Shown: positions 390-23,280 of the stretch, piece by piece
Layout of the letters: every line of letters begins with the position of its first letter
How positions within the stretch are numbered: the stretch's first letter is position 1
Source of the DNA: Barthelona sp. PAP020
Taxonomy: Eukaryota
Reading direction: 5' to 3'
Assembly: GCA_040182905.1 (NCBI GenBank)
Contig: JARQWU010000102.1
Location: 1-32,844, forward strand
DNA: 32,844 nucleotides
The notes under the pieces: model-generated
What the model was told of the DNA's origin: nothing
The model's database searches: none
The model's input: the letters and a program-made list of their open reading frames with translations, nothing else
Made by a program: the position numbers and the translations under genes

Positions 390-2084
390 TTATTGATTCC
401 AATCCCAATCAAACTCGGGGATAACTTCTTTTTTCAGATTCGTGTTGATAACATACAGGTTATTGAACAAACACATCAAATTAAAGTCAAAATCAAAATT
501 CTTTGAAATTAAAAGTTTCAAAAGATTTTCAATTTTTCTGAAATTTTTTGGAATGTTTGCTAACTCTATGTTCAGAAATTTTGCAAGATTTTCATCGAAT
601 AGGATCATTTGACCACAATTTTCAAATCTGTCTTTTACAATTAATCTGCAAATGATTTTTTGTTCAGAGCTCTTAGCAAGTGTTTTTTTGTGTTTTTGTC
701 CATTTCCAAGACTGTCATTACTGCTGTGAAAAGAATCAGAAGATTCAACATGGGGTAAGATTTTCTCTTCTGTCAAGCCCATTTTGCTTCGGGTTCTACA
801 TGTAAAACAACTCAAGTTCTTCACTAATGGATGATAGACATGATATCTCCCACATTTACATAATTTATGTGTCCATACTATCACTGGTGATATGGAGACA
901 ATTCTTCCATTCAACCTATACTGATTTTGGTGAACAGGACGTCGAACCAACATCAGTTCAGCGGAGCGAATCCGAGATTGAATAAACCCCTGATTTATTG
1001 TTAACATTGTTTCTTCCAAATGAAGATGCTCAATCTGAGTAGCCACAATGTTTGAAAAGTCTATTGCGTCGTTTTGCAGTGAGTCTTTGGTGTGACATTC
1101 CACATTTGTGGTGGTTACAATTTGAGAGCTTTCTTTTGGTGTACTGACAGAAATATTACTTTGCAATAATTTAGCAGAATTTTGGGCAATGGAAAAGTTT
1201 GGACTAAGTGAGATATCTTTTGTCTGCGAAATGGCGTTAATGAAATTCCTCTGCACGTCTCTAGCATCTGGCGAGTTATCTGCAATGATAATGATTCTAG
1301 ACTTGTCATTTAATAACAGCCTCACAGATTTTCCATGGTCCTCCTTTACGATCTGCATCTTCTTAACGATAAGATAATCCCCATTCTCCAGTTGAGTCCT
1401 TTGTAATGGGAATATTCTCTCCCGATCGATGTTGATATTTACATATTGCCCAATAGGTAAAGGCCTTAGAGATTTCGCAGAAGATGGCAGATTTTCATCA
1501 GTGAACCAACGACTGTTTATCAAATCAGAATTTGTTGTTCCATCTGAACATACAAGACTTTCTGCATTTTTGAAAATCAACCGGACAGTCATACATTCAA
1601 TTATACTTGATGAAATAGGGATGGTAGAAAAAGTAGTTGAAAACGTTCTGGCTAGTGTAATCGAACCATGTTCAGCAACAACTCGCTTTCTGTAGAGAAA
1701 TGCTTGATTTAAACCATCAAAATCCTCAAAATTTTTATCACCACCAATGAGCTTGAATTGAATTTCGTTTTCATCCTCAAACAATCGAAACAAAGATACA
1801 ATGGACTCTTTTTCATTCTTTTTATTGTTGTTTTCCATCAATAACATTTGTAATTTGGAATTATACTGACGATAACTAGGTTTATTTATGTAGATAATGT
1901 CATAAGGTCGTATTTTTGTTGCCCAATCAAACTTTTCAGAATTAATATCTAATATAAATAGATTCGCATGTATATCTTGATCAAATTTTGAAGATTTTAA
2001 TCTGCAAAGTATCATAGGATTCTTTTGGGTGTATGTTGGAATGGAAACTTCAACCACTGTTGCAAATAGTATTTCTGAATTCAT
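390..2084 (-). CDS. POT1: POT1/TEBP-alpha-like telomere ssDNA-binding OB-fold protein
   Basis: OB1-like ATVVEVSIPTYTQ...IRPYDIIYINKPSYRQYNSKLQ. OB2-like LVCSDGT...LENGDYLIV. S/T-rich linker. C-terminal OB with CKC...CFTC and RLIVKD...MILFDENLAKFLNI. Confidence 0.7.
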   Translation of the reverse strand: MNSEILFATVVEVSIPTYTQKNPMILCRLKSSKFDQDIHANLFILDINSEKFDWATKIRPYDIIYINKPSYRQYNSKLQMLLMENNNKKNEKESIVSLFRLFEDENEIQFKLIGGDKNFEDFDGLNQAFLYRKRVVAEHGSITLARTFSTTFSTIPISSSIIECMTVRLIFKNAESLVCSDGTTNSDLINSRWFTDENLPSSAKSLRPLPIGQYVNINIDRERIFPLQRTQLENGDYLIVKKMQIVKEDHGKSVRLLLNDKSRIIIIADNSPDARDVQRNFINAISQTKDISLSPNFSIAQNSAKLLQSNISVSTPKESSQIVTTTNVECHTKDSLQNDAIDFSNIVATQIEHLHLEETMLTINQGFIQSRIRSAELMLVRRPVHQNQYRLNGRIVSISPVIVWTHKLCKCGRYHVYHPLVKNLSCFTCRTRSKMGLTEEKILPHVESSDSFHSSNDSLGNGQKHKKTLAKSSEQKIICRLIVKDRFENCGQMILFDENLAKFLNIELANIPKNFRKIENLLKLLISKNFDFDFNLMCLFNNLYVINTNLKKEVIPEFDWDWNQ

Positions 2085-6038: not shown

Positions 6039-7523
6039 ATGGATAACAATGATACTGACCATGAAAATGATGAACCGATGATACTTGAAAAGAATTTTGA
6101 TGATCCAAATTATGTAGGTATTAATTTTAGAATGCCTAAACCTGATCATTCATTGTCTTTGATTATATCATCTTTTCTTGAAGATTACCAAAAGTTTTCT
6201 CCACCTTTGGCCAAATGTTTAGCCTATTTTTCAATGTTAAGTTATACTGGTATTCGTGGTTATATTCCATCTGTTGAAAAACTGAATTGGGTTGAGAGAT
6301 TATCAGTTATTTCTGTAAAGTCTACTGACTTATTCTGTTCGCTGTGTGAAGTCAATTCTGAACGTGGTAGAGCATTAATTATTGTGTTCAGAGGCACTGA
6401 CACCCGTTCTAAGAAGAATATAAAATTGAATTTAAAATTTCGGAAAAAGAAGCTGCTTCATTCTAGACTCTTTGGTAATGCACGTGGTCATGATGGGTTT
6501 GTTACTGCTTATCGATCATTGGGGTTTGAGATTGTCAAAGACATAAATGCTAGGATTTGCCAGCTCCTTTTTGAAAAGAAAGCCAATACGGTTGAAGATG
6601 AAGATGACATGCCTCGCATATGCGAATGCGTGTTACCTTCATATTTTTGTAATGGACGTAGTTCTGGAGATTCAACTGACCATACAAACGATGATAAAAA
6701 AGAGAAATCAGATGTAGATGAACAAGAAGAGGACGTTGAAGATGACACATGCGATTTTGAAACAGTCAATTATTTAAAGACATTTACGAACAAGGGAAAA
6801 ATTCCCTTTGAATCAATAATCCTTACTGGTCATTCACTTGGAGGAGCTTTGGCGGCCCTTTGTTCACTTCATCTTTCTATCTTGTTTCAAGAAGTTTTTC
6901 ACATTGAACCCAAGAAAGTAAGTGATGTTGATTTCCCTGAAAGAAACCCTTTGATTCCTTCCATTGTCTTGTATACATTTGGATGCCCAAGGGTTGGCAA
7001 TTCATCTTTTTGTCGTAATTTGCAGAAGAACCTTCAAATATCCTACAGAATCTGCAATAAGAATGACTTGATCACAAAATTACCCCCATGGAACTGGGGC
7101 TATGCACATTTTGGCGTCAAAGTTAAAACCGACGTATTTTTCAATTCTCGGTTTCAGGTGTTTTTAAAAAATCAAAAAGTATTAGTGGGATTTGATGATG
7201 ACTATTATTTGGATGAAGATTCAGACCTGGAAGAAGCTTTGAATTTCTTTGATAGTTTACCAAAAAGAAGCTTTATCGATGCACATAGAACATATTTGGG
7301 AATCACCACTCCTTATGGGTTCTTAAAGGAATGCAAATATATTGAGTTCAAGTTATCTGGTCGTTCACCAAATGTTTTGTCCAAGAGCACCTTTCTCAAT
7401 TCAGTTGAAAAAGTTAAAAATAAATCTGTTGGGAGCGTTTACGATTATAAAAGAAAAAAACATCAACACAAACATAAGCATAAGCACAAGCACAAGCATG
7501 AGAACGTTAACAGATCAGTTTGA
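6039..7523 (+). CDS. Class 3 lipase (alpha/beta hydrolase)
   Basis: IIVFRGT, HDGF, nucleophile elbow LTGHSLGGALA, YTFGCPRVGN, DLITKLPP and YAHFG. Has an acidic insert and a C-terminal His-Lys repeat. Confidence 0.92.
   Translation: MDNNDTDHENDEPMILEKNFDDPNYVGINFRMPKPDHSLSLIISSFLEDYQKFSPPLAKCLAYFSMLSYTGIRGYIPSVEKLNWVERLSVISVKSTDLFCSLCEVNSERGRALIIVFRGTDTRSKKNIKLNLKFRKKKLLHSRLFGNARGHDGFVTAYRSLGFEIVKDINARICQLLFEKKANTVEDEDDMPRICECVLPSYFCNGRSSGDSTDHTNDDKKEKSDVDEQEEDVEDDTCDFETVNYLKTFTNKGKIPFESIILTGHSLGGALAALCSLHLSILFQEVFHIEPKKVSDVDFPERNPLIPSIVLYTFGCPRVGNSSFCRNLQKNLQISYRICNKNDLITKLPPWNWGYAHFGVKVKTDVFFNSRFQVFLKNQKVLVGFDDDYYLDEDSDLEEALNFFDSLPKRSFIDAHRTYLGITTPYGFLKECKYIEFKLSGRSPNVLSKSTFLNSVEKVKNKSVGSVYDYKRKKHQHKHKHKHKHKHENVNRSV
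7461..7499 (+). repeat. Hexamer-like CAYAAG repeat encoding an (HK)n tract at the lipase C-terminus
   Basis: catcaacacaaacataagcataagcacaagcacaagcat translates to HQHKHKHKHKHKH. Confidence 0.8.
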
Positions 7524-7769
7524 TTAGAATGAGAGTTTACAAGAAGAATAAAAGGTTAAAATTTTATTTTTATGTTGATACATTTAGTTGAGGTGTGTGA
7601 TATTGTGGGATTTTTTTTTTTGAAAAAGAACGTTGAGGGGATGTTATGTGGGTGAAAAGAAAGCAATCAAAAGGGATCAATTCAAGACTTTTCAAGTGAG
7701 AATTGTTGTCATCGTTGCCTCTTAGTTTGTGGTCCCCATGCTAGATTCATTCTCCCAAACATTCAATCA

Positions 7770-8114
7770 GTCAATAGCAACATAGAGCAGCCATGCTCAC
7801 AGACAGTTCAACGAAAATTGTGAAGCTCTATGACATCAGTATTGCCAACTCAATCGAGTATGCTGAAAGACGCAAAAAGTGCAAGTTCGGTGAAACGTTA
7901 TTCCTCTGGTGTTTTCAGAGACTGGTCTTTTCTCAAGTACAGTCTCTACTTTCTTCAACAAGTGTCTGTCCCCACGTCAAGAACACGCTCTGGCCTCACA
8001 TCAGGTACAGGCTCGCTGGACTTCTCGCAGAGTTCTGGGCCCTGCAACAGGCAACAAAGTAACAATATGTAGAATTTGTGTTATAAATAGGTAAAACAGT
8101 AGTAGTAGCAGTAT
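7770..8114 (+). mobile_element. Decayed 3' fragment of a non-LTR retrotransposon (restriction-like endonuclease domain)
   Basis: Joining two frames gives RAAMLTDSSTKIVKLYDISIANSIEYAERRKKCKFGETLF/PLVFSETGLFSSTVSTFFNKC/PHVKNTLWPHIRYRLAGLLAEFW*. This resembles the PD..D..K..KY..PhVhE.xG layout of RLE domains. GC is elevated and a (GTA)n-like tract follows at about 8098-8114. Confidence 0.5.
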
Positions 8115-8283
8115 TCATCCAATTTGGGAAGGGAAGAATTGACAGCATCATCCAAAACAAAAAAAGACTGCTGTATCTACAAACAACATAACAAGACGCC
8201 AATTGACATGGTTGAACACTCTTGAGAGGTTATTTTAGCAAAGACAATGTGAGTGAAACAAAGAAAAAAAGCAAAAGACACAA

Positions 8284-11200
8284 TTAATTGTAATATGGCT
8301 CTAAAAGTTCAACAATTGCAGAATGACGTTTAAGTCCGGCAATATCTTTGGCTGAATATCCTCCACATTTTTGAAACACATCAGCCCCGTAATCCAAGAG
8401 CATTTGAACAATTTCAACATGGCCATTTTGACAACTGATTAATAAAGGAGAAATTCCCTTATTCATACACAAATCAATATCAACCTCATGATTCAAGAGC
8501 ATTCTGACAATATCAAGGAAGCCATTTTGACAAGCTACATACAATGGAGTAGCGCCATTAGTATCACGTTTATTCTTATCAACCCCATTATATAATAGCA
8601 TTTTAGCAATATTGAAATAACCATTTTGACAACTAAAATGCAACAAAGACGTGTCATATTTGCGATGAATTGATAATACTGAACGAATATCACTATTCTT
8701 CCATCCACCAATATTTGCCTTGTGATGCAATAGAAGTTCAACAATTTCAAAATGACCTTGTTGACAACCAATGTGCAATGGAGAGCAACCATATTCATCA
8801 AATTGATTAACATCAACTCTATGATTCTCTAAGAGTATTTTGACAATATTAAGATGACCATTTTGACAACTAACGAACAGTGGAGAAACACCATTATTCA
8901 TACACAAATTAACATCAGCTCCACAATTCAACAGCATTTTGACCACATCAAGATGACCTTCTTGACAACAAATGAACAATGGAGAAACACCATCATTTAC
9001 ACACAAATCAATATCAGCTCCATAATCCAAGAGCATTTTGGCAACATCAAGATGACCATTGAAACAACTGATGTACAATGAAGTAGCTCCATTATTCATA
9101 CACAAATCAATATCAGCTCCATGATCCAAGAGCATTTTGGCAATATCAAGATGACCTTCTTGACAACTGACGTACAATGAAGCAGCTCCATTATTCATAC
9201 ACAAATTGACATCAGCCCCATGATCCAAGAGCATTTTAGCAATATCAAGTTGATCTTGATGACAACTGACAAACAATGGAGAAAATCCATCATTCGTACA
9301 CAAATTTATATCAGCCTCATGATCCAAGAGCATTTTAGCGACATCTAAATGACCTCTTTGACAACTAGCATATAATGGAGAAGCAATATCACTTCTACAT
9401 AAATTTACATCAGCTCCATGATCCAAGAGCATTTTGGCAACATCAAGATGACCATTGTAACAGCTAATGAACAATGGAGAAGTACCATCATTTGCACACA
9501 AATTAAAATCAACCCCATAATCCAAGAGCATTTTTGCAATATCTAAATGACCTCTTTGACAACTAGCATATAATGGAGAAACACCATCATTCACACACAA
9601 ATCAATATCAGCTCCATGATCCAAGAGCATTTTGGCAACATCAAGATGACCATTGTAACAGCCAATGAACAATGGAGAAGTACCATCATTTGCACACAAA
9701 TTAACATCAACCCCATAATCCAAGAGCATTTTGGCAATATCAGAATGACCATTCAAACAACTACCATGTAGTGGAGAAACACCATCATTCACACACAAAT
9801 CAATATCAGCTCCATGATCCAAGAGCATTTTGGCAACATCAAGATGACCATTGAAACAACTGATGTACAATGGAGACGCACCTTCACTGCTGCACAAATT
9901 AATATCTGCCCCATAATCCAAGAGCATTTTGGCAACATCAAGATGACCATTGTAACAGCTAATGAACAATGGAGAAGTACCATCATTTGCACACAAATTA
10001 ACATCAACCCCATAATCCAAGAGCATTTTTGCAATATCAAGATGACCCTTTTGACAACTAATACTCAATGGAGAAGTACCACTACTCTTACACAATTTAA
10101 TATCAGCGTCACTCTCCAAGAGCATTCTGGCAATATCAAGATGACCTTCTTGACAGCTGATAAACAATGGAGAAGTACCATTTTCAGAAGATGCATTAAC
10201 ATCAGCTCCATGATCCAAGAGCATTTTGGCAATATCAAGATATCCTTGTTCACAACTAACGTACAATGGAGTGATATTAAAATTATTACTCAAATCAATA
10301 TTCGCACCATGATACAGGAGTATTTTGGCAACATCAAGATGTCCACGGAAACAACTGATCCACAACGGAGAGACACCATCATTTTTACACAAATCAACAT
10401 TGGCACATCTGAACAATAAAAATTCAATCAACTCAAGATTTCCCCCAATACAAGCCAAAAGGAGAGGTGTTTTCCCCAAATCATCTTGCTCATTCACATC
10501 TTGTTTGTTTACATCAATTAAACGCCTCACTTCTTCAAAGTTTCCATTCAAAGCAAAATGATGTAATTTTTTTAAGATGTTTATTTCTTTCAAACTATTC
10601 TTTAAAATATTTTTTTTGGAGTCAATATGAGGAGTGTGTCCATTTCCTTTGCATAAAACTGACTTTGGTGAATTAGATTTATAAAAATCATCTAAACTAG
10701 ATTTAAGATCTCTAAGATAATCAATAATTTCACAAAACAAGGGTCTTTTCTCTGGTTTTTTATCAAAACACCTCCACATAAATTCATAACCGGGAATCCA
10801 ACTAATTTCCTCTTCTGAAAAAACGTCATTCCCTTCTGATAAAGGATTTCTCAATTTCAAAGAATTATATTTTACTTCGTGTATTGGAACATTATTATTT
10901 GGTCCTTTATTTTTACGTTCCTCAAAGGGGGAAATTCCTGTCATTATTTGAAAGAATGATACCCCAAATGCATATGAATCAATGCCAGGATGAACAAAAT
11001 GGTACCTTCTACGACGGACATCAGGTGGCATATACCTACTTTGTGAAAACTTGGGTCTATTATCCTTGTCATAAGAACCAACAAAACCAAAATCACAAAG
11101 CACAGATGTTCCATCTTTTCTCATCAACATATTGTCAGGTTTCACATCTCTATGAATGATACCATTATTGTGACAATGATAAAGAGCCTCTGCTATCTGC

Positions 11201-12210
11201 AAAACACTATTAACTTTTTCAATCACTGTCATTCTGGGAATGTTATCTTTCAGTGAGATTGGACAGTATTCCATCACAATACCAAAATTCTTACTATCTT
11301 TTTTAGTGATACCATGAATCTTACAAATATGTTTGTGATTCAGTCTTCCAACAAAACATTCGTTCTTTACTTTGTTTATATCTGTTTCAAAGTTGAATTC
11401 TTTGAATGCAACATCATTTTCCTTATATCGTGCTCTAAATACAGTTCCAAAAGAACCTCGCCCTAAATTTAGCCATTTTGTTGAATCAGCGAAACATAAC
11501 AACTTCAAATCGGTTTTGTCAATTTCTGGAGGATCTTCAACATCAAAATTTTGAAGCTGAGTTTCCGTTTCCTTGACCTTCTTTAAAATGACTGATAATT
11601 TGTTTTCTCTATTAGTGTTTTTTGAAAGATGAGACACACTTGGGAAAATTAAGGTTGAGGATTTTATAACTTTACACACCCTTGTATTCAATCCCTTTAC
11701 GTGGTCAGAAATTATTTTGAAAAAATTGCCTGCATTTTTTTTGAAAGGAATGATTTTTGAACAAAAATCTGCTTTCAACTGATTATAAAGACACGCAAAC
11801 TCAAAGTGAAATTGAATAAAAATTTCTAAATCACACACGACAAAAAGTAATTTGGAGCCAGAATGTTCCAAATATTTAAAAATATAACTGTACATTTCTT
11901 CATATATTGATGAAAAGATACCATTAAAAAATCCATATTTAGTTTTATCTTTTTCTTTTTCTTGATTTTCTGCAAAATGTTGGAAAATTATCATAAAATT
12001 CAACACTTCAAGCACCAAATAATAAATTTCCTCTTTATCATCACTTTTAAAATTGTATTTCAACAGGTTTTGTACCATAATTAAATGTGAAGTTTTGAAA
12101 GAAGACAGTAACTGAAAAAAAAGATCAAATAATGGTTGATCAAAGACATTCTCTTTGAATGGTTTTAAAAGTAAATCATGAAACTCTTTAAGAGTTTTAG
12201 GTTTTGGCAT
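8284..12210 (-). CDS. Protein kinase with N-terminal helical domain and ~22 C-terminal ankyrin repeats
   Basis: LGRGSFGTV, VAFK, alphaC Glu (KNEC), HRDVKPDN, DFG and RP.F are all intact, followed by 33-aa ankyrin units. First ATG is at 12210 (the track start at 12219 is TTG). No introns. Confidence 0.95.
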   Translation of the reverse strand: MPKPKTLKEFHDLLLKPFKENVFDQPLFDLFFQLLSSFKTSHLIMVQNLLKYNFKSDDKEEIYYLVLEVLNFMIIFQHFAENQEKEKDKTKYGFFNGIFSSIYEEMYSYIFKYLEHSGSKLLFVVCDLEIFIQFHFEFACLYNQLKADFCSKIIPFKKNAGNFFKIISDHVKGLNTRVCKVIKSSTLIFPSVSHLSKNTNRENKLSVILKKVKETETQLQNFDVEDPPEIDKTDLKLLCFADSTKWLNLGRGSFGTVFRARYKENDVAFKEFNFETDINKVKNECFVGRLNHKHICKIHGITKKDSKNFGIVMEYCPISLKDNIPRMTVIEKVNSVLQIAEALYHCHNNGIIHRDVKPDNMLMRKDGTSVLCDFGFVGSYDKDNRPKFSQSRYMPPDVRRRRYHFVHPGIDSYAFGVSFFQIMTGISPFEERKNKGPNNNVPIHEVKYNSLKLRNPLSEGNDVFSEEEISWIPGYEFMWRCFDKKPEKRPLFCEIIDYLRDLKSSLDDFYKSNSPKSVLCKGNGHTPHIDSKKNILKNSLKEINILKKLHHFALNGNFEEVRRLIDVNKQDVNEQDDLGKTPLLLACIGGNLELIEFLLFRCANVDLCKNDGVSPLWISCFRGHLDVAKILLYHGANIDLSNNFNITPLYVSCEQGYLDIAKMLLDHGADVNASSENGTSPLFISCQEGHLDIARMLLESDADIKLCKSSGTSPLSISCQKGHLDIAKMLLDYGVDVNLCANDGTSPLFISCYNGHLDVAKMLLDYGADINLCSSEGASPLYISCFNGHLDVAKMLLDHGADIDLCVNDGVSPLHGSCLNGHSDIAKMLLDYGVDVNLCANDGTSPLFIGCYNGHLDVAKMLLDHGADIDLCVNDGVSPLYASCQRGHLDIAKMLLDYGVDFNLCANDGTSPLFISCYNGHLDVAKMLLDHGADVNLCRSDIASPLYASCQRGHLDVAKMLLDHEADINLCTNDGFSPLFVSCHQDQLDIAKMLLDHGADVNLCMNNGAASLYVSCQEGHLDIAKMLLDHGADIDLCMNNGATSLYISCFNGHLDVAKMLLDYGADIDLCVNDGVSPLFICCQEGHLDVVKMLLNCGADVNLCMNNGVSPLFVSCQNGHLNIVKILLENHRVDVNQFDEYGCSPLHIGCQQGHFEIVELLLHHKANIGGWKNSDIRSVLSIHRKYDTSLLHFSCQNGYFNIAKMLLYNGVDKNKRDTNGATPLYVACQNGFLDIVRMLLNHEVDIDLCMNKGISPLLISCQNGHVEIVQMLLDYGADVFQKCGGYSAKDIAGLKRHSAIVELLEPYYN
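8830..10410 (-). repeat. Tandem array of ~16 highly similar 99-bp ankyrin-coding units
   Basis: The + strand motif tccaagagcattttggcaa.atcaagatgacc recurs with 99-bp period. Protein consensus is LCxxDGxSPLxxSCxxGHLDxAKMLLDxGADxx. Confidence 0.95.
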
Positions 12211-14304
12211 ACAAAACAAAGGATGAATGATCTATTCGGAAGATTTTTCTTCGAAAGAATAACAACAGAATTTTTGTGTTTTTCTTTGGTGCATCCAAAT
12301 GATTTTCCTTTAACCAAAAATACAGCGAAATGCACAGAATTCTGCATTCAAAGCAAAGTTTATAAATCAATAAATAACTTCAGCCTGATTCTAAAAATGT
12401 GTTCTTCAGAACAATTCAATTTTAATAAGAAATCAAAAAATTATATCCAGTGTAAAGTCGGTTAAACTGAATATTAGAATATTTATCATTGTTTTTATGT
12501 TGTGGTTATTAATTTTGAATTATTAGATGTTTCAGAACAGTCGATTTGACAGTTGAACAGCAAGCAAAAACTGCACGTGTTGCTGGGATGTTGTTTCATC
12601 GATTTGTGTGTAAATTAATCACCATAGTCTCATCATAATTCGTTGAGATTTCAAGCGAAAAAATGTTTTCAATAAAGAAGATCAAGACACAATCTTTGTA
12701 ATTTTAATGGTATTCATTTTTTAAAGAAGTCTAAGGTATAATAATGTGCTACATGGATTATAAACTTGATAAAATCACGAACTTATTGCTCATTCTTACA
12801 TTGCTTGTGACAGCTTTACAACAAATCAACTTAACGTTATAGCAACCTTCAAGCTATTTGAAAGACTTATTGATCATTCAATTCTCCTGAAATGTACGAA
12901 GGTTAATTGTTTTGAAATCTATAGAATTAATTTTAACTTGAATGTAATTTCAATTCACAAGGCTTTAATTGTGGTTTCATGTTCTAACGAATGTTCGGAA
13001 AAACAATCACATTCCTATTGAGCTTTTTGATTTGGTGAATATTTCCAATTTTTGTCTATGTTCTACAAATTCTTGTTTTTACTTTTTTCAATTTCTACTT
13101 TAAAGAGACATTTCCAAGAACTAAATTTACGTTTGCACACAACTCAAAATTATTTGATGAAGGATGTTATTGGTAAAATACATTCAATGGACAGTATTCA
13201 ATCACAATAATTATGATCAAATTCTGTTACCCAACATGGATATTGTGATTTTATCACCATAACAAACATATTATTTTTCTTGAAACTACATCTGTATTTG
13301 TTCCTGATATTCTTTCACAAACCTTGGTTCAAAAAAGAAAAAAAAACCTCATTGGTTTACAAATTTCCTTTTTCCATTTAAAATACTGGCAAACACTTAA
13401 GCAATGACAAACGTTTTCTTTATGAAAAGAATAAAGGTTAAAGAACTCTCAACGAAGATGCGGTAATGATTCTCAGTTCTTTATCTTCACATAATGGACA
13501 ATAATCATGTCATTCTTGAATAAAAGGAAGGTAAAGAAGGAAAAACATACATGTTTCTATTCTGTTACAAAGCATGTTTGATGTTTACGACATCTCCATT
13601 CTGAGTTTCAGTTGCATGGTGGTGAAAATAAATACAAACAAGGAACTGGAAATTTTGTGAATATACACTTGAAAATTGGTTCAGATTGATTAACACATAA
13701 AAAGACAATTTTCTGTTTTAATTTGATCTTCTTGTTTGAATATACCAAACTCTTACTGATCTACACAACTATTGCAAAAATGCAACATGTTCTATGAATA
13801 TTCAATTAAAGAGTCAAATTCAAGGACATCTGACAACTGTCAAAATCAATGTTCCATAAATTGAAAATACAATTCTGATGAATCTTCAATAGAACAACAA
13901 ACGGTACTTTACACAATCAAAATTCACAAAATCTTCGAAATTCTGACGGTCAGAATCTTTGATGCTGTTTGATTCAGCAGGTTTATTCATTGCCCGTTTT
14001 AAATATCAATAATTTGTAAGTATTTAGTGGTTTTGCAGATATTAAAAAATACAATAATTTCAAAGAATTCGTTGATCAATCACAAAACAAAAACAACAAA
14101 GTAAGAAATTTTAAGAAAAAGGTTTCAAAACCCAACAAAATCACATAGTATTTCGACATTGAAACAAATTTTTCAAATAAATAAAGTTTTTAAAGAAGTT
14201 ATCATATCATTCAAACGCAGAGTTGATCAATCTGAGATTCATACACAATCAAATTTCGAAAAAAAGAGAAATTGATTGCTTGTCTTTTTTTTTAATTAGA
14301 TTCA

Positions 14305-15957
14305 ATGGAAACAATAGATATTAATGAATATTTGGAGCATATTGGTAATTTTTTGAGCAATAATTCTTATGTTGATGCAATTAAAGAAGTTGGTTTGGAA
14401 TTTCTTTCATCTGGAAATATACCCATCATTCCCACTGATCCTGTTTTCTTTGGAGTATCATGCGCCTTAAAAGCTATTAGTGGCTTAATCAAATTGTATA
14501 CGACTCATAAAGAAGTCAAAAAACAACTTGACGAATTTAAATTTAGAAGTTGTCATTTGTTAAACAATTTTTTGGAATTAGCAGCTGCATATTCTGTGAA
14601 CCAGTGTGACACAGACCCATTGGATCAATATTTAAAAAAATTTGAGAATTTTGTTGTCGAAGCGACAACAGAGGTTCAGAAAATAACTGAACGTTGTTCT
14701 TTTATGAGTGTTTTGCGCTCACCAACTGATATTCAAAGTTTAAAAAATATTCATGAAGGTTTTGATCGGTTACTTCATGATTTGACTTCGTTGACAGTTT
14801 CAAAAAGTTTCATTATTATTAAACAACTCCCTGATAGAATTTCTTTAATGTTGGAAGAAAATAGATCCGAATTAGACAAAACTTTAACTGCCATGTTGAC
14901 CCAACTTCAAGAACTAAATTTAAAAACTGACAAACAGACTGAATTGATAGAACAACTGACCATAAAACTGGAATTATTCCCTCAAAATATTGTAGATGCA
15001 TTGAGTGGATGTGATGCTTCTTGCATAGATTATAGCGAATTAATAGAGGACAAAAGCTCATCACATTATGAAGATATACATAATACTGAAGCTAAGATGG
15101 GACAATGGGAAGATAATAATTGCGATGTAGAAGAATTTATGCTTGATGAAGAAAAATTAATTACTGATGAAATAGATGGAATAACAACGTATACATATGA
15201 TGGTTTTGATGTGATGGTTGTTGATACAAATGAAGATGAAGACAATAAAATAGCTGTTGCGGCATGTGTTGCAATGAAATTCAATCACAAATCAATTTGT
15301 CGTGTGTTTGGTTATACATACATGGATTGTAGTTGGGCATATGTAACTGAACGTTTTACTGGAACTTTGGAAGAAAAATTGAAAAGTGAGACAAGTGTGA
15401 AAAATAAACTTTCCATTTTAAGACAGCTTGCAAAAGCTATTGATTTTTGCCATAGTGAAGGTTATATACATCGAAATATTTGTCCTCAAAATGTATCAAT
15501 TAGGAAAGATGGGACAATTGCCCTTTGTAATTTTGAAAAGACTCGTGATTTAGAAAGGGGTGGTTTTAACTCTATGCAAGGAAATGTTCGTTATATGCCT
15601 CCTTCAATTTTTGCAACCAAATCACTTGTACATCCTGGAATTGATTATTGGTCATTTGGTGCAGTTTTCTTTGAAGTGCTGACAGGAGCTAAGCCATACG
15701 AAGATTATGATGATTATGAATGTTATCAGATGTTTCTGGATTGTATTTCAAGATCAGGTAAACATAAAAAACCTTTCAGAAGACCTAATTCATATAAAAA
15801 TATGTTCCATTACCTTATCTTTAATTGTCCAATCTGGCAATGTTTTAATTCTGACCCCCAAAAAAGACCAACATTTTCTAATATCATCCCTATCCTGAAA
15901 ACTTTAGAAACATCAATTGATTCAATGTCATACTGTATTCCAAATATAACAGCATGA
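14305..15957 (+). CDS. MLKL-like protein: N-terminal helical bundle, coiled-coil brace, pseudokinase
   Basis: N-terminal amphipathic helices AISGLIKLYTTHKEVKKQLDEFKFRSCHLL...LKKFENFVVEATTEVQKI...SFMSVLRSPTDIQSLKNIHEGFDRLLHDL. The kinase fold lacks the Gly-loop and beta3 Lys, and has HRN (15469-15477) for HRD and NFE (15529-15537) for DFG. Confidence 0.8.
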   Translation: METIDINEYLEHIGNFLSNNSYVDAIKEVGLEFLSSGNIPIIPTDPVFFGVSCALKAISGLIKLYTTHKEVKKQLDEFKFRSCHLLNNFLELAAAYSVNQCDTDPLDQYLKKFENFVVEATTEVQKITERCSFMSVLRSPTDIQSLKNIHEGFDRLLHDLTSLTVSKSFIIIKQLPDRISLMLEENRSELDKTLTAMLTQLQELNLKTDKQTELIEQLTIKLELFPQNIVDALSGCDASCIDYSELIEDKSSSHYEDIHNTEAKMGQWEDNNCDVEEFMLDEEKLITDEIDGITTYTYDGFDVMVVDTNEDEDNKIAVAACVAMKFNHKSICRVFGYTYMDCSWAYVTERFTGTLEEKLKSETSVKNKLSILRQLAKAIDFCHSEGYIHRNICPQNVSIRKDGTIALCNFEKTRDLERGGFNSMQGNVRYMPPSIFATKSLVHPGIDYWSFGAVFFEVLTGAKPYEDYDDYECYQMFLDCISRSGKHKKPFRRPNSYKNMFHYLIFNCPIWQCFNSDPQKRPTFSNIIPILKTLETSIDSMSYCIPNITA

Positions 15958-16827
15958 AATTGGCATTAATTACTTTGAGTTAGTTATGTTTTGTATTTCG
16001 CAGCTCATCAGGCTGAATATGTAAATTTTGTTGCTTTGTTTTGTTTTTTAAAAACTTCCAACAGTTTTGCAGAAAGATATTGGGCTATATACAGGATAAA
16101 TGATCCATGTTACACTTTCAAATGCAAAATGCTCTGGACAACTTTGTCCCATATTTACGATACTGTTATTGTATTTAAAATTTCAAAATGTCAACTTCAA
16201 TTATTAAACTGAAGCATGTGTATTCAGTTTACTTGAAAATCAATTTAAATCATAAAATTTATTTATGAAAAGAATGCAAAGAGTTTCTTTAAGGTGTTGT
16301 GGGGTTCACACCATTTTTCAAAAATTAACCACTAGGTGCTCTTATAGCCCTTTGTTAGTTTAATTTGTCAAGTTCTTTGAAAAAGAACATTCTTTTCAGT
16401 TTTTTTCAGCATATTTCATTAATAAACACAGATTTAGCCTTAACAAACACACACTAAAAGTATTATGCAAGGGAAACACCCTGTAGCAAAAATCATTTCT
16501 TTTGCCTGACGTGAACCTTGAAAAACAATACAGTTTTGGTAAAAAAAAAAAAAGCAAGAAGGCGCCATAAAAGCTTTTATTAGCATTGGTTCAATGACAC
16601 TGTTGTTGTTTTGGTGTTTGCAAAAGCAACCTTTTCATCAATACTATGCCATTTTGTTCCAGAATTACCTCCAAAGGGTCAAACAATCATCAGTGATTGT
16701 ATGAGATGTGTAATTTTTTGACTGATGGTAGTGTGTTAAATCCTGCTACAGTTACCAAGGAGCGATGTTAAGCATTCTTTTGTGTAAAAACTAACATTAT
16801 TATCAATCAAATATAATAATTTTATCT

Positions 16828-18906
16828 TTAAAAAAGTTCAAAAACTTCATTCAAATATTTATGAATTTCAGGTAATCCATTTTCACAAGTATATTGGATA
16901 TAATACCCAATCTTTTTTGCCCTTTCAACATATTCATGAAGTGATTCATTTTCTCTTAATAACAAATCCTTCAAATTGATATCACACGTCGTCTTTATTT
17001 GTGTATTTAACAAGAAATTAATAATTGGAAGAACATCTCCAAAAAATTCATTGATAAGCCATTGCTTATATTCTTTAACAGTTTCTTCAACTTTATGTGG
17101 TAATTCATTATAGATTACGTTGTATAAATCGTTGTCTTTCAAGTTTTCACAATATTCACTAAAGTTCCCGATTGTGCTTCTCTTTTCACATTTGTAGACA
17201 TTTTCACCAAAGTCTAACTCTTCTTCAGGTTTATTTGGCATTTTAACTATTAAAATATTTGGTCTCGATGGATCACCTCTAAAACGAATAAGTTGATATG
17301 CTTCTGCTTCATGACACCACTCATTAAAATCTGTCATAAATTGATTTACACCATTTTTATATGATGTGTACCAATAATTCCCCCAATAACCAACAACTCT
17401 ATTTGTATAATATAAACAAGTAATATAATTGATAAGATTACCAGAAGGATGTCTTGAGCAAATGCTAGATTTTCTGTACCAAGTAATTCTGCCCTTGTTC
17501 ACTGTGTTTTTTAATTTTTTTGCTCTGAAAACATCTGGTTGCTTAAAAACTGGTGCAGGCAGATAATAATCAACAGAATGTCTTTTTTCATAATTGTGAT
17601 GTTGATGAGTCGTTCCACAGTGTCCAAAATTATTTTCTTCCCATTTACTCTTTAAAACCCGATCAAATGTTTCATACGTTACTTTTAAGCGATTATCGAG
17701 GTTGATCAAAAAATACTTGATTTTCTCAAAACAATAATCAATAACTCTTGAGCAGTCGATATTTTCAGATAAATTCATTAAAAATATAATTTTTTGTCTC
17801 AACATATGTTGCAGTCTATCAGAAATGTTCCCTGGACAAGATAAAGCATTTTTCACAGAAGTTAGAAATAATGGAATATGTGGGAATCTTAAAGTGTTGT
17901 CAAAAACATCAATAATGGTTCCTTCATTTAAAGTTGGAACTTTGAATAACATTCGTTTTCTGAAATCAAGCAAATTTTGCAAAGGTGCAAACCAAGTTAC
18001 ATCAGATTTAAAAGATTCAATCAATGCATACCGGCAATAGTATTCAACAGGAAATCCTCCATCAATAAGTAAGGGTTCCGAAATAAAAGATTCAATTAGA
18101 TTTGAACCAAAGTTTGTTCCCAAGTAGTTGTCAACCCCTCTAACATTTGCATCAATAATACTCAATTGCTTGCGAATTGCAGAAAATTCTTTTTCACACA
18201 ATTCTTTCAGTTGTCTAATATCTTGACGAATGGCCTTAAATGCCTGCATAATTTGTTTTATCATTTGTTGTTGAGAATTATTCCTTTTACCAAATAGTTT
18301 TATACCAGAAACTATCAAAGATAAAATATTACCTGTCATTAAAGAAGTTACAACTTCAATTGTATTTGTATCTTTGACACAATTAAATAATTTGTCTGCA
18401 AAATCAAAAGTGTTTCCAAGTTGTGGATAAACAAGGTCAGCAATAAAATGCAAGTCTTTATTGCTCAATAAACTTTCAGTATTCTTTGCATTGAAAAAAA
18501 GATAATTAAGGTTGTTCACTTGTTGATTGTTTTCAGTTATATTTGTTATGTGATTATTAACAATATTTGTTACCACTTCAGTTGCAACATTTTCTTTTAG
18601 TTGATTGTCTAAACTTTCGTACATTTTTTTGAACAAATTTTTTTTATTGTCATAATTCACAGTTGGATCAGCCAAATGTTTTAAAACTTGTTCGTTGGTC
18701 ATGTTCGGTAAATCTTTGTTGATTTGTTCATTATGAAGATAATCTCTTTCAATTTCAATAGCTCGAATGCCTTGGTCAAAATATGGTATTAAGGAAGCTA
18801 AATTTTTTGCATGTTCTACATTTGCATTAATTCTGTTGTCACTGATTCCTTTTTCTTTAAAATGTTCTTGCATTTGTTGCATATCATCAATAAGCATGAA
18901 ATCCAT
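16828..18906 (-). CDS. Unknown 692-aa protein with a hydrophobic hairpin plus coiled coil; candidate alpha-pore-forming toxin-like
   Basis: Long intronless ORF. IEVVTSLMTGNILSLIVSGIKLFG is followed directly by heptads QQMIKQIMQAFKAIRQDIRQLKELCEKEFSAIRKQL. The C-terminal part is rich in aromatics, His and Cys. No signal peptide seen. The CDS is solid, the function is tentative. Confidence 0.6.
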   Translation of the reverse strand: MDFMLIDDMQQMQEHFKEKGISDNRINANVEHAKNLASLIPYFDQGIRAIEIERDYLHNEQINKDLPNMTNEQVLKHLADPTVNYDNKKNLFKKMYESLDNQLKENVATEVVTNIVNNHITNITENNQQVNNLNYLFFNAKNTESLLSNKDLHFIADLVYPQLGNTFDFADKLFNCVKDTNTIEVVTSLMTGNILSLIVSGIKLFGKRNNSQQQMIKQIMQAFKAIRQDIRQLKELCEKEFSAIRKQLSIIDANVRGVDNYLGTNFGSNLIESFISEPLLIDGGFPVEYYCRYALIESFKSDVTWFAPLQNLLDFRKRMLFKVPTLNEGTIIDVFDNTLRFPHIPLFLTSVKNALSCPGNISDRLQHMLRQKIIFLMNLSENIDCSRVIDYCFEKIKYFLINLDNRLKVTYETFDRVLKSKWEENNFGHCGTTHQHHNYEKRHSVDYYLPAPVFKQPDVFRAKKLKNTVNKGRITWYRKSSICSRHPSGNLINYITCLYYTNRVVGYWGNYWYTSYKNGVNQFMTDFNEWCHEAEAYQLIRFRGDPSRPNILIVKMPNKPEEELDFGENVYKCEKRSTIGNFSEYCENLKDNDLYNVIYNELPHKVEETVKEYKQWLINEFFGDVLPIINFLLNTQIKTTCDINLKDLLLRENESLHEYVERAKKIGYYIQYTCENGLPEIHKYLNEVFELF

Positions 18907-19253
18907 GTTAAAAAAATAAAAAAATTAAAAGAAGCATTCAAAATAAATTTTTCTAGAATATCAATTGAGCTAGAAAAAGATTTTATTTTCGCAAAGTGAA
19001 AAAATATTATTTTTATGTTAATTTGATGCGTTATGATTATTAAGTAGTTTGAAGTTTTTGGAGAAAGAAGATTTGGAAGAGTTTGAGTCCAGGAAAAAAA
19101 GATAGCAAACCAAAGGGCTAAATTCAAGATTCTTGAAACGAGAATTTTTTTTTGCTTACATTATCTTTACGTTTGAATCATATATATATATATCTTATTT
19201 GAAAATGGTTGTAAAATCTATTCACTTTATTATTAATTTTCTTTTTTAATTTT

Positions 19254-19850
19254 ATGGGAATTCGATGGATAATATTTGATTGGGGTGGTGTTTTATGTGA
19301 AAATCCATCAATGCAATTGATTGAATACTGTTGTAAATACTACAATATTGAAAAGAATCTTCTTGTTGATGATTTTTGGACAAAGCAAATGAATAATTTT
19401 CAAAAAGGTTTACCAGAGAGGATTTTTTGGGAAAATATTTTAAAACATCATTGTATTGATGAAAATGAAATTAAATGTATTTGGGAAGATATTTTTGAAA
19501 AAGTATATGTAGAACGTTCCAAAGTTATAGAATCCATAACAAATTTAAAACAAAAAGGCTATTTGATTGGTTTATTATCAAATACTGAAATCCCTGCAAA
19601 GAATTTTCAATTAGAAAAGTTGAATTATAATTTTTTCGATTTTAGATTGTTTTCTTGTGATATAGGTTTGGTCAAACCAGATGCAGAAATATACAGAAAG
19701 TTTTGTGATCAGACTGGTTGTTCTTTTGAAGAGATATTGTTTATTGATGATAAATTGGAAAATATTGACATTGCCAAGCGATTAGGAATGCATGTTATTC
19801 ATTTTAGTGATGAAGATAGTTATTTCAGTGAGATGTCGAACTTTTTATGA
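19254..19850 (+). CDS. HAD-superfamily hydrolase (subfamily IA, YihX-like phosphatase)
   Basis: Motif I IIFDWGGVL, motif II LLSNT, motif III GLVKPDAEIY, motif IV LFIDDKLENI. Confidence 0.92.
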   Translation: MGIRWIIFDWGGVLCENPSMQLIEYCCKYYNIEKNLLVDDFWTKQMNNFQKGLPERIFWENILKHHCIDENEIKCIWEDIFEKVYVERSKVIESITNLKQKGYLIGLLSNTEIPAKNFQLEKLNYNFFDFRLFSCDIGLVKPDAEIYRKFCDQTGCSFEEILFIDDKLENIDIAKRLGMHVIHFSDEDSYFSEMSNFL

Positions 19851-21302: not shown

Positions 21303-23280
21303 TTAAGCAATTTGAAAGTCTTTTACTTCATTAAGGATATCTAAAGCTTGATCCAGTAAAACTTTTTGACTAGTCAATTCTTTTCTTTTCTTTGCAACAA
21401 TAGGGTCTTGTTCCATTAATTTGTCAAACAATTCTTCCTTGTATAATTTTGAAATAAGTTCATTCTGTAATTTCTTCCTTGATGCATTGACTAAGAAATG
21501 CATTACCACTTTTGGCACTGTGTCATTGATCTTTTTACGAATTATATCGAAATAGCTTAATAATAACTTTTCAAAAAGTAACACAGCGTTTTCTTCACGA
21601 TCGGTTGAAGGTTTATTGGCTCTGAGACTCTTAGGCACACTATCAATGCTTTGATTATTCGAACTGGTGGAGAATAATGAGCTTTTTTCTTCAGTTTGCT
21701 CAATTTTGTTCAGTATCTCAGATGCTTGTACAAAATCTGGATGCGAAGTGTTAATATAAGCTAATTCAATATCAATCAGATCTTCGATCATTTGTTGAGT
21801 CGGAATCAATTGCTCCTTCAACAGATCATTTGTGGCCTTCAACAAAGCATCTTTCAGCTTATTGTAGTTTTCAACAGACTTTGGCACAGATGCTTGCATT
21901 ACCTTGGTCAGTTCTTTGTAAACCAATTCTGAACACTTCAATGAGGGTGTTTTCAAAATACTGATTTGATCTCTCGCTAATAATTCGAAAGCTGCTTCAG
22001 ACACAAAAATACCACTTGCTCTGACACCACCCGCGTTTCGAATAGCTGTTCTTATGTCATCTTTGGAAATTCGTTTTTCAGGATTCAAATCTTGTAGCTG
22101 CTTTTCCAAAATCACATGGAAAACGTAACTGATACGCGCACCTCCATACAATTCCTTGGTCGAAGCATTCGCAATCGTACCATCAATATAACTGTTATAC
22201 TCTGACGTGTACTCTGTTAACATGTGTAATATCATGGCACCGATGTTGGATTCGTCAATTGGTGACGGATACTGAGAAATCTGTTCACAGATCTCAGAAT
22301 GCAATTTCTTCACAGTTTCAAAGGTGGAAGGTAATGTACGATGAATGTGATGCATCAAAAAGAAGCTCAAGGTCTTAGCAAGAAATTTGCTTCCCATCTT
22401 ATGTGCAACAAGACCATAAATAGGATGGTTTTGGAAAAAGTCTTCTTCATTTTTCAAGGATGTGCTAATCATTACATTCTCATCAATTTGACTTTGAGAG
22501 CGATTAACAACACCAATAAAGCCTAATCGTAAGGGAACTACCTTACCTTTCAAGATATTCATTGCGTTAGTTCCTTTATCCATTAAATCGATCTTTGTAA
22601 TAACACCCAAGGTTCTTTTTCCTTCAACATCAACCTCTCTTGCAAGTTGCAATCCATCAGAGTTCGCAAGATCAGCATTTGCAGCAGATACAGCTAGTAT
22701 AATAGCGTTAGGATTTGAGATATACTCCAAACACATTTGTCGAAGTTGTCTTTCAATGTCTTTGGGCTGATCACCAACAGCAACTCTAGTTATACCTGGT
22801 AAATCAACTAAAGTTAAATTTAACACGTTTGGTGACCAAATTTTTAGATTGATAGGGTTCCTACTCACACTCTTTCCAGAACCAACTAATCGTATAGTTT
22901 CTCGGGTTATTTCTTCTCTGACATGATCAAAATTAAAAAAAAATTCGTTGGGTCGATGATGAAACACTGCCCATTCATTATAGCGATTATTATTGTCATC
23001 TACTTTATATTCGTCTTCATCAATATGATTTAATTGTAAAACTAAGGGTCTTCTAGTTACAATTCCAGAACCTCGGGGTAAGAAATCACGTCCTACAATA
23101 TTCTCTAAAACAGAAGATTTTCCAGAACTTTGTGACCCAATTACAACAATTTGAGGTAAATTAACTTGATTCTAATTAATGTTAGAAATAATAATAAATA
23201 ATATGAAGAAATACCATTTGAGCTCCAATAACAGAAAACACATCTTGTAATTTGTTAATAACTGGTATCAATTTTTCCAT
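21303..23280 (-). CDS. Dynamin-related GTPase (Drp1/Vps1 class), 644 aa; exons 23280-23215 and 23171-21303
   Basis: MEKLIPVINKLQDVF, a 43-bp intron at 23214-23172 (GTATTT...CTAAC...TAG), then LPQIVVIGSQSSGKSS, GIVTRRPL, DLPG, TKID, middle domain and GED. No PH or proline-rich domain. Confidence 0.96.

Follow-up and report, generated by a model that had tools for sequence, protein, structure and literature searches.

A divergent kinase–ankyrin and MLKL-like pseudokinase gene pair in the metamonad Barthelona: a candidate sensor–executioner module of sister kinases

A 32,844-nucleotide stretch of the genome of Barthelona sp. PAP020 (contig JARQWU010000102.1, assembly GCA_040182905.1; called the window below), an anaerobic metamonad flagellate from a lineage with strongly reduced mitochondria, holds two neighbouring genes that are transcribed away from each other. 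Gene A encodes a protein (P0002) in which a kinase domain precedes a long ankyrin array, and gene B a protein (P0001) in which a helical head and linker precede a catalytically dead kinase. Sequence comparison identifies the two kinase domains as sisters in a private family, which is new here, and the head of gene B is likely homologous to the membrane-damaging bundle of MLKL. A preliminary description, made from the sequence alone, had cast the pair as a necroptosis-like module in which the ankyrin array senses a ligand and the kinase triggers its neighbour. We tentatively retain this idea as a working model and weigh it below against three alternatives.

Genes A and B encode sister kinases, one of them dead

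Both open reading frames (ORFs) are uninterrupted and intron-free and end exactly where the preliminary description had placed them; their start codons lie 2,094 base pairs (bp) apart, and no stop-to-stop frame between the genes exceeds 96 amino acids (aa). The gene A kinase (Pfam match at aa 248–496, expect value [E] 2e-37) has the complete catalytic motifs of a RIPK3-type activator: G250-x-G-x-x-G255, K270 (in VAFK), HRD at 353–355 and DFG at 373–375, joined by the alphaC glutamate E284 and the catalytic-loop residues K357 and N360, as read from the sequence and an alignment with Aurora A. Because its P+1 loop is unusual, activity is predicted only. No RHIM was seen by eye, no RHIM motif search having been made, and the C terminus of the protein is taken up by the ankyrin array. 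Gene B has the kinase fold (Pfam match at aa 314–527) and, as in the MLKL architecture, has lost the catalytic residues: the GxGxxG loop is missing, V306 and A320 stand where gene A has K270 and E284, and the remaining motifs read HRN (389–391) and NFE (409–411). Its activation segment carries T413 and S423 as putative phosphosites. The earlier reading of an intact kinase beside a dead one is borne out.

The exact gene B protein is present in EukProt, and its full-length relatives are just two, both transcriptome records of Barthelona sp. PAP020 in that collection: P0003 (579 aa, with 45% identity to P0001 across 98% of its length) and P0135 (563 aa, 34–35% identical, with P0133 as its shorter form). 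All three proteins are without the Gly loop, the beta3 lysine and the DFG aspartate; P0135 retains HRD and has NLG in place of DFG, and P0003 carries HRN and GFE, the motifs that the preliminary description gave for mouse MLKL. Since it is shared by all three, the dead state appears to be old and maintained rather than a recent decay. An Asn-Ser motif stands seven residues before the tyrosine of RYxP in each of them (S423, S452 and S451), at the spacing of the threonine in TLCGTLDY of Aurora A, which is the activating phosphosite of that kinase. Between P0001 and P0003, the head is conserved more than the kinase (58% versus 43%).

How are the two kinases related? Their domains are 30% identical over 250 residues. 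Among the proteins gathered in this analysis, the gene A kinase scores best with P0135 (128 bits) and P0001 (112 bits), the best outsider reaching 95.5, and the gene B kinase scores best with P0003, P0135 and gene A (115 versus 75 for the best outsider). A quick tree search on the four family kinases and the 60 best-scoring of 126 outsiders united gene A, P0001, P0003 and P0135 in one clade (support of 98 in the Shimodaira–Hasegawa-like approximate likelihood ratio test, SH-aLRT), with gene A as sister to the three pseudokinases (97); three of the four family rows have an unusual composition. Bacterial and DLK-type kinases make up most of the outsiders, which include neither MLKL nor a RIPK. 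A motif picked by eye from the alignment, RYxP...HPGxD, is found in 4/4 family kinases and 0/126 others. The best 60 of 425 PDB matches to the family kinase profile do not include MLKL, and the best 60 of 132 PDB matches to the gene A kinase do not include RIPK3. By these comparisons the kinases of genes A and B are sisters in a family of their own, and neither MLKL nor RIPK3 is seen to be particularly close to it. The grouping of the gene B kinase with that of gene A, together with the position of MLKL outside the best 60 PDB matches, supports an independent origin: the MLKL layout most likely arose separately here, as the preliminary description had guessed, and orthology of the gene B pseudokinase to vertebrate MLKL is unlikely.

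The module probably arose by duplication of a kinase gene. P0003 and P0135 are nearer relatives of gene B than gene A is, and because two later splits separate gene B from gene A, the adjacency of the two genes would be long-kept or regained and not that of a fresh tandem copy. That the genes are paralogues gives a second reason for their adjacency, which the preliminary description had missed.

The N-terminal head of gene B

The N-terminal 235 aa of gene B are predicted to be all-helical, in agreement with the first reading, and a low-confidence helical prediction at aa 174–234 is a candidate brace. For MLKL-type homology of the head, which we consider likely, the support comes from the agreement of two independent lines of evidence, each below its threshold. 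A two-sequence profile (P0001 and P0003, aa 1–192) run against 177,635 PDB sequences at E up to 10 found human MLKL N-terminal constructs in 5 of its 7 matches (E about 1). When P0135 was added, human MLKL took rank 1 with an E of 0.054 (6 of 14 matches, all constructs of one protein that count once), level with a designed helical protein at 0.056. The match spans gene B aa 67–167 on MLKL 25–124, so that some 100 residues align in register, broken by one short gap. In the ESM Atlas, MLKL_N annotates 30% and 36% of the members of the best clusters for the head, which are oomycete and mucoromycete clusters and share 196 and 189 of 256 features with it; their score is 0.91, a value of 0.9 being reached by shuffled proteins in 4–10 out of 100 trials. 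The next clusters are MCAfunc and RPW8.

Neither the domain models nor the low-confidence structural predictions confirm an MLKL-like head. The Pfam models MLKL_N, HeLo and RPW8 match neither P0001, P0003 nor the isolated head. A single-sequence model of P0001 has a predicted local distance difference test score (pLDDT) of 35, and a three-sequence model of aa 1–200 is weak as well (pLDDT 46, with three helices above 60). The Foldseek comparison, which the preliminary description had proposed as a check, gave no match for the latter model at E up to 0.001, and a wide structural search returned generic bundles (best Z 10.5). In favour of the head, a second look at Foldseek's matches has plant resistosome coiled-coil domains in 7 of the best 17 rows (Z 8.8–10.7; for Sr35, Z 10.7 with a root-mean-square deviation of 2.5 over 99 aligned residues). 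Generic bundles attain Z-scores as high as any obtained for the head model. Neither structural aligner run has MLKL in its best 50 rows, which does not exclude it. Among 1.84 billion representatives, searched with a cut-off of E up to 0.001, no MLKL-like protein from fungi, plants or animals was matched; the five matches were three family members and two proteins, P0132 and P0134, that were dropped as repeat-driven.

P0135 and its shorter form show local differences in this region. P0133 begins inside the bundle and stops early in the kinase, and P0135 has a charged insertion of ~23 residues at about aa 100–130, between two bundle helices.

The ankyrin array and the relatives of gene A

Pfam reports 21 Ank stretches in gene A, and a repeat pattern finds 21 clear ankyrin repeats at aa 578–1283; with two degenerate end repeats recognised by eye the total comes to 22–23, in keeping with the count of about 22 first given. 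A pattern match at aa 117 was dropped as a false repeat. Fifteen central units measure 99 bp each and are 65–92% identical in DNA, in keeping with repeated duplication inside the array. In a comparison of these 15 repeats within the single gene, the ratio of nonsynonymous to synonymous differences per site (pN/pS) is 0.62 for the array overall. At six binding-face positions, fixed beforehand after designed ankyrin libraries, pN is 0.37 as opposed to 0.16 for the frame (permutation p 0.006), with an overall pS of 0.33. Binding-face pN is 1.15 times overall pS, and the variation suggests relaxed rather than clearly positive selection. A variable face fits a ligand-binding array; this is true of many ankyrin proteins and is no proof of immune sensing.

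Each ankyrin unit also has two nearly invariant cysteines (repeat positions 10 and 31, window 8284–10575), which is unusual; in an anaerobe they could play a part in sensing metals or redox state.

Unlike the two further Barthelona pseudokinases, no kinase–ankyrin relative of gene A came to light in the best 120 of 253 matches. There was none among shorter proteins either, in a weak search that also missed P0001 and P0135. The best match to gene A, P0012, was rejected as a relative: it is a bacterial-type protein that owes its high score to carrying two kinase domains.

A possible sensor–executioner switch and its alternatives

In conjunction with what is established for MLKL, we tentatively propose the following model, the most likely of the readings weighed here, to which we would give somewhat less than an even chance. 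The ankyrin array would bind a non-self or damage ligand, for example a bacterial or viral protein, and ligand binding would cluster or de-repress the gene A kinase. This kinase would then dock on its paralogue, gene B, and phosphorylate S423 or T413, upon which the brace would free the bundle to oligomerise at a membrane, so that the cell is killed or a food vacuole or invader is damaged. Only the anatomy of the pair is established, and each mechanistic step is taken from MLKL biology. As to origin, one kinase gene would have duplicated within the flagellate lineage, separately from RIPK3–MLKL. The more ambitious proposition is that a metamonad built a RIPK3–MLKL-type switch alone, from duplicates of which the catalytic copy bears a variable ankyrin sensor and the dead copy a membrane-attacking bundle, the two still lying head-to-head; this we regard as rather doubtful.

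Several observations weigh against such a switch. Divergent order is found at 5 of the 16 neighbouring gene pairs in the window, counted from 17 chosen ORFs between which some gaps may hide exons, and the gap between genes A and B is the widest of the 16. Orientation alone consequently says little, and a gap of this length does not suggest a compact shared promoter. The pair is known from one locus, and gene A stands without a kinase–ankyrin relative in the searches described above. MLKL binds phosphoinositides via basic patches, whereas residues 1–170 of the three family pseudokinases are net acidic (−7, −7 and −12). Finally, the two extra N-terminal helices of gene B resemble BaMLKL and Goodbye types, N-terminally extended bundles whose function has been called open (10.1101/2022.03.16.484565).

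The strongest alternative, unlikely as we judge it, accepts the MLKL-type head and denies the death switch: the genes would be old duplicates that never parted, with gene B serving its sister kinase as a scaffold, decoy or allosteric regulator without lytic action, or acting independently of gene A. Paralogy alone can explain why the genes are adjacent, and an acidic, N-terminally extended bundle is what a protein with such a role might show. Cbl, for instance, is a non-lytic adaptor. The bundle class to which MLKL heads belong is annotated as Cbl N-terminal superfamily (10.64898/2026.08.07.743466), and in plants MLKL immunity has been described as separable from cell death (10.1101/681015). 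Adjacency is less readily put down to descent, however, when the duplication is as old as 30% identity implies and two later duplications lie between gene B and gene A. A passive role also leaves aside that the hydrophobic first helix is retained across the three family pseudokinases (mean hydropathy 1.53, 1.47 and 1.18) and that the activation-loop serine is kept in 3/3.

It is improbable, in our estimate, that the gene B head is a helical bundle or coiled coil without kinship to MLKL and that the genes belong to an ordinary lineage-specific family of kinases, some of them dead. The silence of the Pfam models, the parity of a designed protein with MLKL at the best PDB score, the ease with which shuffled proteins approach the Atlas score and the want of any MLKL-like match outside the family among the 1.84 billion representatives are all as this explanation would have them. 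Set against them, two differing methods name the same family, one that had been predicted beforehand; the MLKL score rose on adding a third, divergent member; and the match of about 100 residues falls in the position that MLKL's own bundle occupies, before a helical linker and a pseudokinase.

Least probable, and by our reckoning very unlikely, is that gene A is an all-in-one receptor with a worn MLKL-type head, kinase and ankyrins, and gene B its inhibitor or partner in mixed oligomers: gene A does have a region of 232 aa, similar in length and place to the head of gene B, before its sister kinase, the MLKL_N cluster that tops the gene B list in the Atlas is also the one nearest to this region, a D-x7-H-x2-F-x2-L-x3-L pattern falls into line in it and in all family members when the alignment is forced, and the wheat protein R3AK is an MLKL with catalytic motifs (10.64898/2026.08.07.743466), but the Atlas score of 0.76 is below the level that a third of shuffled proteins reach, 345 of 1,959 shuffles scored as high against the family profile, pairwise comparison with the gene B head gave z of at most 1.3, and HHalign returned a probability of 0.2%, the same as for two control proteins. 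Homology of the two heads, plausible in the forced alignment, thus failed four sequence tests and is kept as a lead only.

Comparison with known systems

In vertebrates a live kinase, RIPK3, activates a pseudokinase executioner (PMC11476962, PMC12881547); the mechanism of MLKL and its homologues in fungi and plants have been reviewed (PMC11476962). The proposed sensor–executioner pair resembles this system in that gene B combines a probable helical bundle, a predicted brace and a pseudokinase with Ser/Thr in the activation segment, and gene A is a predicted live kinase and candidate activator. It differs in that the kinase domains belong to a family of their own, gene A carries ankyrins, the bundle of gene B is acidic and preceded by two additional predicted helices, and the two are neighbouring genes. 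RIPK4 and ANKK1 likewise have a kinase followed by an ankyrin array. Gene A departs from them in having about twice as many repeats, similar to one another at the DNA level, and a long N-terminal region, and no orthology is indicated.

The plant MLKL-type systems reportedly include Pm13, and they include a wheat pair. In that pair, R3NLR/R3AK (Rwt3.6.8), an NLR gene and an MLKL gene lie head-to-head (10.64898/2026.08.07.743466), so that a repeat-bearing sensor gene faces an MLKL-type executor as it may in Barthelona. The preliminary description had known of no such arrangement; with the wheat pair described, it is less unprecedented than was thought. The wheat sensor is an NLR and not a kinase, R3AK keeps its catalytic motifs, and co-immunoprecipitation is reported to have detected no association (10.64898/2026.08.07.743466). 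Here, by contrast, the putative sensor and executor are kinase paralogues of a unicellular organism. Several independent origins are given for monocot MLKLs by the same source (10.64898/2026.08.07.743466), and Arabidopsis has MLKL1–3; plant MLKL proteins are described as pseudokinases (10.1101/681015).

Fungal genomes encode HELL domains fused to kinases or pseudokinases, in clusters of two or three genes (PMC12881547). Gene B would share with fungal HeLo/HELL proteins and BaMLKL the fusion of an MLKL-type bundle to a (pseudo)kinase, the occurrence in gene clusters and the N-terminal extension of the bundle; the characterised fungal HeLo/HELL systems, unlike the present pair, use NLRs and amyloid templating. 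Viruses, too, have captured MLKL (PMC10583209). In the literature covered, to which most subscription papers do not belong, we found no metamonad MLKL-like protein and no kinase–ankyrin/MLKL gene pair, and the main text of 10.1101/2023.05.03.539051, whose supplements may hold annotations, mentions neither kinase, ankyrin nor cell death.

What would be the relevance of such a pair? The papers covered here place MLKL-type executioners in animals, plants and fungi. If the model is correct, necroptosis-like defence would also be present on a remote branch of the eukaryotes, in an anaerobic flagellate that lives freely, and the pair would show how a pseudokinase switch can develop from its own activator by duplication. 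With intron-free genes and a named candidate phosphosite, S423, the model is directly testable in yeast or cell culture.

Setting of the locus and neighbouring genes

Positions of the two genes and their parts in the window
Feature	Positions	Strand	Basis or remark
Gene A, 1,308 aa (P0002): helical N-terminal region, kinase, ~22 ankyrin repeats	8284..12210	-	ORF, Pfam
Gene A ankyrin array, about aa 546–1305	8296..10575	-	Pfam and repeat pattern
Gene A kinase domain, aa 244–505: GxGxxG, K270, E284, HRD, DFG; unusual P+1 loop (SQSRYMPP)	10696..11481	-	
Gene A N-terminal region, aa 1–232, unassigned; possibly a worn MLKL-like head (lead only)	11515..12210	-	ESM Atlas 0.76
Divergent intergenic region, 2,094 bp	12211..14304	.	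no long reading frame
Gene B, 550 aa (P0001): MLKL-like head, brace/coiled-coil linker, pseudokinase	14305..15957	+	ORF, Pfam
Gene B aa 1–45: two extra predicted helices before the bundle, strongly conserved with P0003	14305..14439	+	
Gene B aa 46–165: probable MLKL/HeLo-type bundle; hydrophobic first helix, aa 47–65	14440..14799	+	
Gene B aa 166–235: predicted helical linker, brace-like	14800..15009	+	
Gene B pseudokinase, aa 284–538: without Gly loop, beta3 Lys, alphaC Glu; HRN, NFE	15154..15918	+	
S423, activation-loop serine in Asn-Ser motif, candidate phosphosite	15571..15573	+	kept in 3/3 family pseudokinases

The window is AT-rich (24–37% GC per kb) and gene-dense, and its content is eukaryotic, with SHQ1 and dynamin genes by Pfam match and two genes that look ubiquitin-S27a-like and eS7-like. 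Contig scans based on the P0001/P0003 alignment gave one generic kinase among 251 pattern matches in metagenomes (22% identity), one among 476 in viral contigs (27% identity) and none among 116 in prokaryote genomes, so that no locus of a true relative was found in these three collections; as the scans yielded at most generic kinase matches, no viral or bacterial source is indicated. No convincing inverted repeat flanks the locus, a search for this mark of a mobile element having found none, and a sequencing-run lookup for window 10600–16400 matched no run.

The gaps around the three lineage-specific genes of window 7523–19254, namely genes A and B and an orphan gene, measure 760, 2,094 and 870 bp and exceed most other gaps of the window, as would be the case in an island that was inserted or evolves fast. 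The orphan (16828–18906, minus strand), tail-to-tail with gene B, encodes 692 aa with a hydrophobic, Gly-containing stretch at aa 184–202 (mean hydropathy 1.46) and, after it, a probable coiled coil; alpha-pore-forming proteins have such a pattern. It has no Pfam, NCBIfam or PDB match above cut-off, no viral relative and no likeness to the MLKL-like head; it could be the third gene of a defence cluster. On the other side, tail-to-tail with gene A, lies a class 3 lipase (6039–7523, plus strand; Pfam E 4e-20, GHSLGG motif) with an acidic insertion and C-terminal HK repeats. Lipases are common in phagotrophs. In fungal NLR systems, alpha/beta hydrolases serve as effector domains (10.1101/2022.03.16.484565). 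Within the gap between the lipase gene and gene A, the stretch 7740–8080 appears by eye to be higher in GC and has overlapping open frames of 82–94 aa, possibly a small gene or relic.

Farther away, a 564-aa protein (390–2084, minus strand) without a Pfam match has beta-rich segments and a CxC...CxxC cluster, a pattern reminiscent of POT1 or RPA70-type OB-fold proteins. The ATG-started ORF of the dynamin-family gene (21303–23171, minus strand) holds just the end of the GTPase domain; because the open frame extends upstream of this ATG, to about 23171, the true start or a first exon should lie further up.

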